DNA of 64,000 nucleotides from assembly GCA_964016885.1 (NCBI GenBank), contig CAXHJY010000988.1, positions 1 through 64,000 of the forward strand. Direction: 5' to 3'. This DNA is from Eledone cirrhosa. Taxonomy: Eukaryota. Position 1 is the stretch's first letter, and each line of letters begins with the position of its first letter. The notes beneath the pieces were generated by a model. It did not search any database and was not told the origin of the DNA. It saw only the letters and a program-made list of their open reading frames with translations. This document shows positions 6,015 through 42,220 of this stretch, piece by piece. Made by a program: the position numbers and the translations under genes.

Positions 6015-6485
6015 TTCGTTTCTGAATTTGTTTAGCAAGATTCTTTATCTGAAATCGTGTGTTGAAACCGATATTGTTATACTTTGGGAGGGTCATGTTG
6101 CCAATAAGAAACACACGCACCAGTTGCTTTCACTTCAATTTAATTTATTAAATATTTATAAATTTACAAATTTATAAATTTCTGGTTGGTTGGTTGGTTC
6201 CACAACCAGATAGTTGTTTATATATATATAGTCATAGTTCTTTCGTCACACACTCTGTGACCTCTTCAGTGACTGGGGATTTCTTTCTTCGTTTCTGTGC
6301 CTTTCCTTTCTTCTATCCTACGCCATTTTGTTTGTACAAACAAATGGCGTAGGATAGAAGAAAGGAAAGGCACTGGTGCGTGTGTTTCTTATTGGCAACA
6401 TGACCCTCCCAAAGTATAACAATATCGGTTTCAACACACGATTTCAGATAAAGAATCTTGCTAAACAAATTCAGAAACGAAATAT
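6015..6485. mobile_element. Hammerhead-bearing fold-back element, family A, copy 1
   Basis: Minus-strand monomer 6015-6330 plus an internally deleted plus-strand monomer, head to head; ~110-bp inverted ends; homologous to 32669-33122 and 41886-42220. Confidence 0.85.
6231..6273 (-). ncRNA. Type-I hammerhead ribozyme motif (family A)
   Basis: Reverse complement GTCA-CTGAAGA-G-GTCACA(GAGTG)TGTGAC-GAAA-GAAC-TA-TGAC. Confidence 0.75.
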
Positions 6486-7734
6486 CTATATATATATATA
6501 TATATATATATATATATATATAAACATCTATATATATATATATATAAATATCTATATATATATATATAAACATCTATATATATATATATATAAATATCTA
6601 TATATATATATATATATATATATAAATATATATATATATATATATATAAATATATATATATATATATATATATAAATATCTATATATATATATATATAAA
6701 TATCTATATATATATATATATATAAATATCTATATATATATATATATATAAATATCTATATATATATCTATATATAAATATCTATATATATATATATATA
6801 TAAATATCTATATATATATCTATATATAAATATCTATATATATATATATATATAAATATCTATATATATATATATATATAAATATCTATATATATATATA
6901 TAAATATCTATATATATATATATAAATATATATATATATATAAATATATATATATATAGATATTTATATATATATAAATATCTATATATATAAATATATA
7001 TATATATATAAATATCTATATATATATAAATATCTATATATATATAAATATCTATATATATATAAATATCTATATATATATATATATAAATATCTATATA
7101 TATAAATAAATATCTATATATAAATATCTATATATATATATATAAATATATCTATATATATATATATAAATATATCTATATATATATATATAAATATATC
7201 TATATATATATATATAAATATATCTATATATATATATAAATATATCTATATCTATATATAAATATCTATATCTATATATAAATATCTATATATATATATA
7301 TAAATATCTATATATATATATATAAATATCTATATATATATATATAAATATCTATATATATATATATAAATATCTATATATATATATATAAATATCTATA
7401 TATATATATAAATATCTATATATAAATATCTATATATAAATATCTATATATATATATAAATATCTATATCTATATATAAATATCTATATCTATATATAAA
7501 TATCTATATCTATATATAAATATCTATATCTATATATAAATATCTATATCTATATATAAATATCTATATCTATATAGATATTTATATATATATATAGATA
7601 TCTATATATATATATAGATATGTATATCTATATATAGATATGTATATCTATATATATATAGATATGTATATCTATATCTATATAGATATACATATCTCTC
7701 TATATATAGAGATATACATATAGATATAAATATA

Positions 7735-7935
7735 TATAGAAGAGCTTCTACAGGACTAGAACTGTTTCATTCATGAGAAATCATCAGGAAGATCAGGAGC
7801 TTCCTGATGATTTCTCACGAATGAAACAGCTCTAGTCCTGTAGAAGCTCTTCTATATTAAAACTGTTATACTATGCTATGTATTGAGTACCTTACTTACT
7901 GTGGTTACCTCCGATTGAACCCGGTATAACTTATG
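7735..7935 (+). mobile_element. Fold-back pLTR-like element with a hammerhead motif (family C)
   Basis: Inverted arms 7735-7791 / 7800-7856; CAGGAGCTTC-CTGATGA-TTTCTCACGAAT-GAAA-CAGC-TC-TAGTCCTG; relatives at 17581-17700 and 25860-25998. Confidence 0.7.
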
Positions 7936-7953
7936 ATATATATATAGATATAT

Positions 7954-38196: not shown

Positions 38197-41156
38197 CTAG
38201 CAGAATGGCCCGGCGTTGCTCGGGATTCTAAACATAGATTGGCATGTTTATCCCTCCTTTCTGAAACAGTTTCGTTGTATGTTCACCAATTGATGCAGAA
38301 GTCCTAATAAAAAGTGAAGTCGCCTTGGGTGAATAGGCAAATAATTTTCCATTAAGATTTTTCAAAAGCATGTAATTGCATTCCCTCTATTTTTTGTTGT
38401 TGTTTTTGCTGCTGTTGGTTTGATAGCAGTCGTTGGTCCTACTACTAACACAGTCTCATCCTTCTTCAGCCAATCGTGTATATCCCCTTCTGGCTCATCA
38501 GCAATGAGAACAATATTTGCTCTAGGGTTCTTATATATTTGATATATATTTATCCTTATCGAGCCTCGTAAAATAAATATGTTTGATTATATTTTGTTAT
38601 TGTGTATGCAAAAATATCTGTACACAAATATATAATTATATATATATATAATTATATGTATATATATATATATATAAGTATAATAAGTAAGGCAATCAAA
38701 GATATGAAGACGGGTAAGGCAGCTGGGCCTTCGGAAATAGTTGCTGAAATGCTGAAAGCATCTGGAACGGTGGGACACACTATGGTCACCCGGATAGTAA
38801 ACCAAGTCATACAGAATGGGGTCGTTCCGAAGGACTGGCGTAGCAGCATCATCATTAACTACTACAAGGGTAAAGGAGATGCCCTAGATAGGGGTAACTA
38901 TAAAGGCATTAAATTAATCGACCAGGTCATGAAGGTCACAGAAAAAGTAATAGCGCAACTAATCAGAGAGCGAATTGATCTAGATGAAATGCAGTTCGGG
39001 TTTGTGTCAGGTAAAAGTACCACAGACGCTCTTTTCATTGTACGACAACTACAGGAGAAGTACCTAGCTAAAAGTAAACCCCTATACTTAGCTTTTGTTG
39101 ACTTGGAGAAATCCTTTGACAGAGTCCCCCGCTCCATTATCTGGTAGGCTCTTAGAAAACTAGGTGTTGATGAATGGCTTGTGAGAGCTATACAAGCCAT
39201 GTCTAAAGAAACAGTCAGCAAGGTTAGAATTAACAACGAATATAGTGAAGAGTTTAGCGTAAAAGTTGGTGTTCATCAGGGCTCTGTCCTTAGCCCCCTA
39301 CTATTTATTATTGCTCTTCAGGCTATAACAGAGGAGTTCAAGACCGGCTGCCCATGGGAACTCCTATACGCAGATGATCTAATACTCATAGCTGAATCAA
39401 TGGCTGAACTAGAGAAGAAATTCCAAACATGGAAGCATGGCCTAGAATCAAAAGGCCTTAAAATTAACCTGTCTAAGACTAAAGTTTTAGTTTGTAGGAA
39501 GGAAAATAGGGCACCAGTCCCATCTGGGAAATGGCCATGCTCAGTGTGTAGGAAAGGAGTAGGCAGAAATTTTATGTCCCAAATGCAAAGTATGGGTGCA
39601 TAAAAGATGTAGTGGGATCACAGGTAAGCTAACTAAGAATATAGATTTTATATGTGGCCGGTGCTCGGGTGCAATAAGTAGTAGCAAGCGCCCACAGAAT
39701 ACTAGCTCATTCCATTGCACAGATGGTTCTATAGAAATAGTGGACACCTTTCGTTACCTGGGTGACAAAATCAGCAGTGGTGGAGGGTGCTCTGAAAGTA
39801 CAGTAGCTAGAGTAGGAACTGGATGGAAAAAGTTCAGAGAGCTTATACCATTATTGGCTGGTAAACGGTTCTCTCTAAAAATGAAAGGCAGGCTATATGA
39901 TGCCTGTATACGAACAGCAATGTTACATGGCAGTGAGACTTGGGCATTGTGTGCAGAGGATATATGCAGACTGGAGAGGAACGAAGCTTGCATGCTCCGC
40001 TGGATGTGTAATAGTAATATACGTGAACGGCAAAGCATAAACGAACTAAGGCAGAAATTAGGAATAAGAGGGATCAGATGTTGTTTACTCGAGAGAAGAC
40101 TACGTTGGTACGGTCACGTGATGCGCATGAAAGTTGACAACTGAATAAAAAAGTGCAGGGCGATAAAAATAGACGGTAGCCACGGAGTAGGCAGACCCAG
40201 AAAAACCTGGGACGACTTGATAAATTCCGACCTCACACACTTACACCTCTCCAAGACAATGTCACTGGACCGAGATCTTTGGCGCTACACAGTAATACAG
40301 AAGACCCGCCTTGCCTAAGTACAAAGCGAAACCTACAGTCAGTAGGCACCTCTAACAAAAACACACCTCCGTCCCACCACCCCCACCCATCCACACCACC
40401 CTTTCCAATGTAAAGTTATGTTGGTACCACAACATCCAGTGCGAAACAAATGAGGTCGTGTAGGTGTCACGACAAAAAAAACACAGTCCACGCTGTAATG
40501 TGGCCGTGTAGGTAACACGGTAAAAACCTCCCAGTCTACACTGTAAACGTGGTTGGTGTTAGGAAGGGCATCCAGCCGTAGAAAACCCGCCAGACAGTAC
40601 TATACGAGCAACACAACCACTCTTGCCTCAAGTGGGAAAACTCCCGTCCAAACCTATGCAAGCGTGGAAGATGGACGTTAAACGATGATGATGATGATGA
40701 TGATGATATATATATATTAAAATAACAGATTAAAGTTTAAACGAAGAATCGGTGCTTTCACCCTTAACGGGATCTTCTGAAACTAAAATAAAAAAAATCA
40801 ATCTGTGAACGCAGAAGTCAATATTTCGAAAAAACGTTGCACACTATATATATATATATATATATATATATACACACACTATATATACATATATACACAC
40901 ACACACACACAGATAGTGTCATAATGTGGTAATGCAGACAGCCAGACATACAGATAGATATTATAAGGGCGTGACGTTATAGCTATCTAATGTGGTCCCT
41001 AGGGCATTGAAAATTTGCAATTTCTTTTGCTCAAAACACTCACACGACCATAAGTATTACATGTGTAGAGTTTGAAAACATTCGGTTGGGTGGTTCTCGA
41101 GTTTTAGGGAGTCAGACAGACAGACAGACAGACATTCTCTGTTTTAGATATATAGA
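38197..41156 (-). mobile_element. Non-autonomous Helitron A (contains an RTE insertion)
   Basis: Minus strand begins TCTATATATC...(TGTC)n and ends with the hairpin CCCGAGC-AAC-GCCGGG followed by CTAG|T. Confidence 0.7.
38677..40707 (+). mobile_element. RTE LINE subfamily 1, 5'-truncated, with stops and a frameshift
   Basis: Near-identical to 1933-3966; ORF pieces 38602-39147, 39181-39603 and 39596-40144; (GAT)n tail. Confidence 0.95.
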
Positions 41157-41871
41157 CTAGCAGAAAACCACCCAGTGGGCGGTTTTCTGCTAGCAAATCT
41201 AGTGTATATACTGAAATTTTAATCATACCATAAGGAAATATTTTTTTATTGTCAAAACAAATGTTCAAAAGTTAAACTTCAATTTTTTTTAATTATTTCC
41301 AATTTTTTCATGAAATTGAACACTCGACATTGGCTGCTGGAAATGGAAATTAAATCGTATTTAATTGTATTTAAATTTCTAACCTTATTTTATTATTTAT
41401 ATTTTTTCAATAAGAAATAAAAAAAAACAACAACAAAAAATTGAAGAAAAAAATTGAACAAATCAAACGTAGGTTATGGAACTGCGCAATCTGATTAATA
41501 AATTACCTCATCAGCAGCAACCTTCTTCAAATGGTCCTTATTATCAGCAGCAACAACCACAAATTCAATGGCAACCTTCTTCGCATGGTGTCAAGTCAGA
41601 ACCGCCTCGAACTGGTTACTTCTGGCTTGTGCAAGGTGTCTCTATAGCAACCAGCGATTCCCTCGGCCTCAGTGACCAAAGTCAGTGGAGAGGGGAAGGT
41701 AATGTTTCTATAGCACGTGTTTTAGCGGCTATTCACTCTCTCTCTCTCTCCCTCCCGCTATCCCCCTCTCGTAGTCTGTCTCTTTCTTTCACTCTCACTC
41801 TCTCTCTACGCACGTGTTTCCATTGTCGGACAGACAGACAGAGAAATTGTTGGTTATATATTATAAGTAGA
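41157..41871 (-). mobile_element. Non-autonomous Helitron B
   Basis: Minus strand A|TCTACTTATAATATA...(TGTC)n; 3' palindrome CTAGCAGAAAACC...GGTTTTCTGCTAG ending in CTAG. Confidence 0.7.
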
Positions 41872-41885
41872 TAAATAATATAATA

Positions 41886-42220
41886 TATTTCGTTTCTGAA
41901 TTTGTTTAGCAAGATTCTTTATCTGAAAACGTGTGTTGAAACCGATATTGTTATACTTTGGGAGGGTCAACAAGATGGCGTAGGACAGAACAAAGGAGAG
42001 GCACAAAAAACAAAGAAAAGAATCCCCAGTCACTGAAGAGGTCACAGAATGTGTGACGAAAGAACTTTGACAATATATAAACAACCATCTGGTTGTGGAA
42101 CCAACCAACCGGAAATTTATAAATTCCTAAATTTATAAATTTATTATAATAAATTGAAGTGAAAGTAACTGGTGCGTGTGTTTCTTATTGGCAACATGAC
42201 CCTCCCAAAGTATAACAATA
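41886..42220 (+). mobile_element. Hammerhead-bearing fold-back element, family A, copy 3 (hammerhead 42029-42071)
   Basis: Inverted arm 41886-41968, then a monomer from AACAAGATGGCG to GTATAACAATAT. Confidence 0.85.

Follow-up and report, generated by a model that had tools for sequence, protein, structure and literature searches.

The window analysed here comprises 64,000 nucleotides (nt) of Eledone cirrhosa DNA (assembly GCA_964016885.1, contig CAXHJY010000988.1, positions 1 to 64,000, forward strand) and contains three short repeats with a hammerhead ribozyme motif, which an initial annotation had described as a retrozyme-like family devoid of an open reading frame (ORF). The repeats are almost certainly 5'-truncated, head-to-head insertions of the pseudo-long terminal repeat (pLTR) end of an autonomous and abundant Penelope-like element (PLE); they are pLTR end pieces of known layout and not a separate, ORF-less retrozyme. 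All three are present where the annotation had placed them, with AT-rich flanks, and each is made of two arms in head-to-head inverted orientation, one of which begins at, or at most 4 nt from, ACAA(G/A)ATGGCG. Positions within the element are given on the 314-nt sense arm of copy 2, whose nt 1 is 32810. In copy 2, an inverted arm on the minus strand (32667..32810, monomer nt 109-255) finishes at a short 3' end, and the sense arm on the plus strand (32810..33123, nt 1-314), which contains the pLTR and its tail, finishes at a long one. The sense arm carries a YY1-like motif at 32813..32822 (+), located at the 5' junction hot spot described below, and the first 28 codons of the element's ORF at 33039..33123 (+); the short end corresponds to ORF nt 26 (33064) and the long end to ORF nt 85, the 59 nt between them being the tail. 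Copy 3 shows the opposite arrangement, as had been noticed, with the long end on the inverted arm (41886..41969, minus strand, nt 231-314) and the short end on the sense arm (41969..42221, plus strand, nt 1-255). Copy 1 has the long end on both arms: arm A (6012..6335, minus strand) is a whole pLTR with the 59-nt tail and its long end at 6012, while arm B (6336..6484, plus strand) joins monomer nt -3..36 to 195..314, nt 37-194 being deleted internally at a near-repeat; the centre of the palindrome lies at 6333-6336.

A complete hammerhead core is found in all three copies, both by motif pattern and by folding of stems I and II. The cores of copies 1 (6235..6269, minus strand) and 2 (32873..32907, plus strand) are of the minimal type I, with predicted cuts after CUA and CUU, respectively, and copy 3 has a core of the same type at 42033..42067 (+). 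They share CTGAAGA, one extra base, a 6-bp stem II, GAAA, a 2-bp stem III and a stem I of 4-5 bp; in copy 2, the extra nucleotide follows A9, and stems II, III and I measure 6, 2 and 4 bp. Metazoan PLE hammerheads are likewise described with a short stem I, a long stem II, an extra nucleotide after position 9 and a tiny stem III, and occur mostly singly, sometimes as opposite-strand pairs 100-700 bp apart (PMC4209133). A difference from that description is that the Eledone pLTRs fall into two subfamilies, distinguishable at monomer +64..+98 across 96 pLTRs by the predicted cut site (CUA vs CUU) and by loop 3 (AA vs GA). In a scan of the window against Rfam, none of the listed matches (150 of 168) is to a hammerhead family; the microRNA matches, scoring under their cut-offs, were discarded as hairpin artefacts. 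When two hammerhead copies were co-folded, they exchanged stems II and did not form the stem III dimer that had been expected, a result that carries little weight on activity as a dimer and gives no support to it, and, by eye, few junctions (L179, L201, L238) fall at the predicted cut (+99). Further hammerhead-like cores at 5156-5192 and 49548-49596 (+) are unrelated in sequence to the three-copy family.

The parent element emerges from a genome search with the 314-nt monomer, in which 40 of 318 candidates were scored and 30 loci fetched. Half of these (15/30) extend upstream in common sequence, three of them through GIY-YIG and reverse transcriptase (RT) coding sequence. Downstream of the long end, two loci run on into an open frame, so that the final 85 nt of the monomer (nt 230-314) are the first 28 codons of that frame, at odds with the ORF-less description. 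The read-through junction from pLTR to ORF has 451 exact matches in the genome, some of which lie within one 46-bp satellite; a satellite of 46-bp units, made of the long end and the ORF sequence that follows it, was seen at G000:C1:132947039-132947570 (12 matches listed). In particular, locus L154 (G000:C1:63065724-63075700) is a tandem array of 4,423-bp units that are 99.98% identical, each with an intact ORF of 1,318 amino acids (aa). The presence of such an intact, near-identical tandem master suggests that the element is probably young. L129 and L142 are about 99% identical to L154, and L155 is also tandem, in keeping with the tandem or partial-tandem pLTRs of endonuclease-containing (EN+) PLEs. 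Copies 1, 2 and 3 of the window share 99%, 91% and 88% identity, respectively, with the L154 pLTR, and copies 2 and 3 reach up to 98% identity with other genomic copies among the 40 of 318 candidates scored.

The predicted protein has a YVDD motif and a long Asn/Thr-rich insert. Its structural model has a predicted local distance difference test (pLDDT) score of 89, and its four best matches in the PDB are telomerases. A Pfam search with the C-terminal 777 aa gave a weak RVT_1 match (E 2.4e-4, below Pfam's cut-off), while GIY-YIG (PF01541) is above the cut-off in L061; a CCHH motif can be read from the L154 sequence, where the VVY and YIG motifs flank two Cys and two His follow further downstream. 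Profile searching with the ORF returned weak bacterial RT matches alone, phmmer of the whole ORF against the PDB gave no match, and the closest protein relative is an RT-domain protein of Octopus vulgaris (65% identical), a species in which Penelope-like families are described as abundant and recently active (PMC13282606). Upstream of the GIY-YIG core lies a CX4CxxC linker, which agrees with the CX2-5CxxC linker before the endonuclease in the definition of PMC8557442 and by motif suggests a Neptune-like element, a linker that is, however, common to Nematis and Naiad. The family combines five traits of EN+ PLEs: a telomerase-like RT ORF with a C-terminal GIY-YIG, tandem pLTRs, an inverted truncated copy with a one-sided tail and a hammerhead motif. 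The initial idea that a Penelope-type RT/GIY-YIG protein mobilises the repeats is well founded, as are its (TA)n targeting, its minimal hammerhead and its two discrete 3' ends.

The behaviour of the ends was followed with a 29-mer lying just inside the short end, which has 24,502 exact genome matches (control, 0). The first 100 matches in positional order (100 arms, 73 insertions) make up a first sample; a second includes 82 arms from 60 of 68 listed regions, for which the interval -15..+10 had been fixed beforehand on the first. The monomer search is biased to full-length arms and is excluded from 5'-end statistics; counts of inverted partners, unpaired arms and nested or non-nested arms are hand tallies. 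Two discrete 3' ends account for all 100 arms (53 short, 47 long, no third class), and exact patterns running into TATA count 15,365 long and 14,408 short ends genome-wide. The flank is at least 90% AT in 91/100 arms. The 5' ends are far more variable: 46 arms reach the ORF, 34 start downstream of +10 and 13 lie within -15..+10, and starts outside this interval range from +297 to beyond -2,600. Together with the partner tally, these end tables dispose of three claims of the initial annotation, as the start is not fixed (13/100 and 9/82 arms lie within -15..+10, the remainder being scattered), a fold-back is not always present (a detectable inverted partner in the fetched flank for 39/73 insertions, and tiny or distant partners for a few more) and the unit is not ORF-less.

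A separate non-autonomous retrozyme is likewise rejected, in view of the 46/100 arms that enter the RT/GIY-YIG ORF, the 451 read-through junctions and the intact tandem master. Copies attached to an RT ORF, which the annotation had suggested looking for genome-wide, do exist, and the arms in the ORF and L154 indicate that the copies are truncated ends of full-length Penelopes, an outcome that it had named as speaking against its own reading. Metazoan non-LTR retrozymes are similarly short, with a type I hammerhead and pLTR-related sequence, but are described as non-coding tandem units (10.64898/2026.07.22.740005), whereas the Eledone unit is the end of a coding element. Its monomer has a coding part and ORF attachment, and no same-strand neighbour at under 600 nt, hence no short hammerhead tandem, occurs among the first 100 matches. 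A pLTR lineage resembling short interspersed nuclear elements (SINEs), for which a constant 5' end and a separate clade would be expected, does not emerge either, given that 22/182 arms start at the hot spot and are scattered on the tree.

A regular feature of the family is the pairing of its two ends. In all, 36 of the 39 head-to-head insertions in the first sample combine one long and one short end (p 1.8e-8 vs independent choice), and so do 23/27 further neighbours within 8 kb (p 1.6e-4), one of which shares an arm with the first sample. Of the 36 insertions, 17 have a short-end arm that extends further upstream than its partner, in 12 it is the long-end arm that does so, and the remaining 7 have arms of about the same reach; in 17/36 the two arms are non-nested. 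A near-identical, almost full-length pair of head-to-head arms, one with the long and one with the short end, lies 11.8 kb apart at G000:C1:13323277 and 13335121 and is possibly one very large inverted insertion. The two arms of an insertion also resemble each other, with a divergence of 2.7% within vs 4.9% between insertions, lower within in 26 of the 35 scorable (of 39). In addition, the pLTR tree has a long branch of odd composition, and two insertions are A-to-G hypermutated on the element's sense strand in both arms, L104 (G000:C1:18412925-18417253) and L117 (G000:C1:2087584-2090326). In L104, whose arms are non-nested, 23 of 24-25 such changes are common to both arms, and in L117 30 of 30-31, while just 15 of the 35 and 29 changes of the two loci coincide. 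The simplest reading of these shared changes is that both arms derive from one edited RNA. No edits lie outside monomer +5..+170, even though the arms reach as far as -215 and -743.

A second regularity is a hot spot of 5' junctions at -15..+10. It collects 13 of 58 local junctions in the first sample, against 3.5 expected (scan-corrected p 0.004), and 9 of 44 in the second, against 2.7 expected (p 0.001), a replicated enrichment of 3-4-fold; the junction contexts indicate true breaks and not alignment failure. All three window insertions start at the hot spot, against 13/73 in the first sample, so that the window trio is an unrepresentative draw. Among the 47 arms that reach upstream, 45 contain CCGGATGT, which we take to be an ETS-like motif; an NRF1-like core, CATGCGCA, is present in 41/47, and the full NRF1-like GCGCATGCGCA in 27/47, some 30 nt ahead of ATGGCG. 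Stubs starting at the hot spot lack the NRF1- and ETS-like motifs, which are situated about 25-50 nt 5' of ATGGCG. The YY1-like motif of copy 2 matches 10/12 positions of the YY1 consensus quoted in PMC13017510, which also gives the NRF1 consensus and, for human promoters, locates the activity of YY1 immediately 3' of the start site. Because the hot spot falls between the NRF1-like and YY1-like motifs, in human promoter order, it is likely to be a transcription start site, as judged from these motifs. A promoter-like role for the YY1-like motif, as initially proposed, is thus favoured by the replicated hot spot at the motif, but the notion of self-promoting stubs is weakened, since those starting there have no upstream NRF1- or ETS-like motifs.

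The pLTR tree, built from 96 rows, places the 22 hot-spot arms among ORF-linked arms; they require 16 changes, 9 of them forced by well-supported branches (the bootstrap is not fully settled), and have no lineage of their own save four older arms. These four short-end arms (G000:C1:970193, 5411548, L246, L252) have hot-spot starts, common deletions and a GAGC loop-3 variant; their clade, which has no ORF-linked member in the sample, is possibly a non-autonomous sub-lineage.

Taken as a whole, these observations are very probably best explained by Penelope stubs, likely made by twin priming on one RNA, with a hot spot that would mark the promoter-started 5' end. The GIY-YIG/RT protein would cut (TA)n DNA, and both broken ends would then serve as primers for the reverse transcription of a single RNA, starting from two fixed internal sites separated by 59 nt; the two cDNAs would stop at different points and then be joined head to head. 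By analogy with in vitro results on the Anolis element, the two 3' ends are taken as RT start sites. The hot spot would represent the 5' end of RNAs started at an NRF1/ETS/YY1-type pLTR promoter, and cDNAs primed near that end would run off after about 255 or 315 nt, leaving solo stubs. Twin priming on one RNA is, by itself, the part to which we give a slight preference. A rival route to the fold-back is that a cDNA primed at the long end turns back and uses its own strand as template, that the hairpin product is then cut by the endonuclease at the short site, and that deletions around the palindrome centre later leave the arms unequal. Such self-priming, proposed in PMC3846280, with endonuclease resolution of the tail in PMC8557442, also accounts for the shared edits and arm identity, and it would be expected to give the near-perfect palindromes seen in 7/36 long+short insertions, whose arm starts are no more than about 12 nt apart and in some cases lie at AT palindromes. 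It would, however, require a one-sided later deletion each time in the 17/36 insertions whose short-end arm holds sequence absent from the long-end arm; the short end is found on 21/34 unpaired arms as well, and, in vitro, the Anolis protein initiates reverse transcription from either boundary of the tail, with extension of both strands (PMC11167929), so that we consider this self-primed route unlikely. A tentative elaboration of twin priming, which we hold to be possible but not probable, is that a dimer primes both ends of one cut on one RNA, at the two sites 59 nt apart, for which the edits shared by non-nested arms would be the proof, and that cDNAs reaching the capped 5' end at the NRF1/ETS/YY1 promoter are inserted as solo pLTRs or else switch to the downstream pLTR, in the manner of a retroviral strong stop. 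If true, the strand transfer would explain why the edits in L104 and L117 begin at +5/+14, with none upstream.

Two further explanations concern the hot spot. It may be an RT pause or a microhomology trap at the (CA)n/A-rich run before ATGGCG, as the junctions spread over about 25 nt within this low-complexity run and AT palindromes at about +150..+180 likewise gather junctions. Yet in read-through copies (23 loci after dropping seven repeats of one satellite, plus 38 more, not all of them independent) the same run collects 0-1/36: none of the 36 copies passing +10 stops in -15..+10 (one does at -17), vs 22/105 (Fisher p 0.001, or 0.009). A simple sequence trap is hard to square with this difference and appears rather unlikely also in view of the placement of the run between the NRF1-like and YY1-like motifs, the human-promoter order for a start site. 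Alternatively, in a reduced form of the initial model, solo pLTR stubs might produce transcripts that are copied again in trans, forming a SINE- or retrozyme-like sub-lineage, in line with a hot spot that is real and absent from read-through copies and with stubs that retain the YY1-like motif, the hammerhead and both 3' sites. This is quite improbable, as the 18/22 hot-spot arms outside the four-arm clade are scattered among ORF-linked copies, copy 1 is identical to ORF-linked arms over the aligned pLTR, short tandem units are missing from the first 100 matches and the stubs have lost the upstream NRF1/ETS-like motifs. The favoured explanation has, in turn, several observations to contend with. 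The pairing rule is broken by 2 long+long and 1 short+short insertions (3/39) in the first sample, by 4/27 further pairs and by window copy 1, the 7/36 palindromes are those foreseen by self-priming, and gene conversion between inverted arms could be the source of their likeness. Full-length copies of promoter-started RNAs would be expected to end at the hot spot, yet no pile-up is seen there in read-through copies, which must therefore derive from other, multimeric or circular, templates. Furthermore, the folding energy of the hammerhead regions is not better than that of shuffles (z about -1), and Pfam assigns no family to the whole 1,318-aa protein at E 0.05.

Published descriptions of Penelope elements already include the inversion, the one-sided tail, the (TA)n targets and the minimal hammerheads. 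The EN+ Penelope of Adineta vaga has an inverted 5' pLTR, an optional tail on one inverted pLTR, junction palindromes and solo pLTRs, and resembles the Eledone element in holding the first codons of the ORF in the pLTR (there 12 aa, or 22 with the tail) as well as in its Asn-rich inserts and ORF of about 1,300 aa (PMC3846280). It differs in its 31-bp tail, against 59 nt here, and in its TATA/Inr (initiator)-like motifs, where the Eledone element has NRF1/ETS/YY1-like ones and tens of thousands of copies. Canonical C-terminal EN+ PLEs share 5' truncation, partial tandems, the inverted 5'-truncated copy, an often one-ended tail and (TA)n targets and, with an endonuclease of the Neptune/Nematis type, the CX2-5CxxC linker and the CCHH motif; their tails are of 30-40 bp, and no count of long+short pairing was found in the available text (PMC8557442). 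The Poseidon element PAc of Anolis carolinensis also has two RT start sites within the 5' ORF, which bound its tail, and AT-rich targets, and its protein, predicted to be a dimer, cuts and extends both strands; its ORF starts from hammerhead stem II and its RT start is near +111-118 (PMC11167929), whereas the Eledone ATG lies about 130 nt past the hammerhead and the ends fall at ORF nt 26 and 85. In Drosophila virilis, the Penelope transcript likewise begins in the upstream pLTR of a partial tandem, as in HeT-A, and a 34-bp repeat lies at the ORF start, but the promoter is of the Inr/downstream promoter element (DPE) type, with an intron (PMC2377424). Within the open-access literature, neither a long+short pairing count nor a link of YY1 or NRF1 to Penelope was found, and open-access papers on octopus Penelope hammerheads include, judged by title, none on the three-copy family, which may already be catalogued in Repbase/Dfam or in a curated octopus library.

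Sister Penelope-like sequences are also present in the window. A pLTR stub at 8335..8605 (+) contains a similar hammerhead and short terminus, as had been observed, without the ATGGCG motif, and a 5'-truncated, broken coding copy occupies 15978..17577 (-); both end at the place of the short end relative to their ATG. The coding copy had been put forward as the mobilising partner of the three repeats, a role for which it is rejected, given its 47-67% amino acid and 69% nucleotide identity to the master; the partner is the family's own ORF. A near-perfect 88-nt hairpin at 7752-7839 is probably another head-to-head junction; its arm is similar to RT sequence that the sister element carries around 17596-17612. 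Other features of the window include a satellite of 29-nt units (27592-about 30900; about 106 overlapping repeat matches), a long dispersed repeat in inverted orientation (1105-3594, 39569-40332 and 52851-55332; 94-96% identical) and weak tRNA-like matches at 9129-9186 (+) and 45077-45134 (-), which are probably SINE heads.

The element itself is ordinary, one more Penelope-like family, though a very abundant one (about 30,000 ends). The case calls for caution, as, in such genomes, a short hammerhead repeat is easily mistaken for a retrozyme or a SINE. The origin of the inverted ends and one-sided tail of Penelope elements is described as unresolved (PMC8557442, PMC3846280, PMC11167929), and the Eledone family provides a test bed: with thousands of insertions to draw on, the long+short pairing, the edits common to both arms and the 5' hot spot can all be tallied, and its intact natural ORF can be used in vitro.

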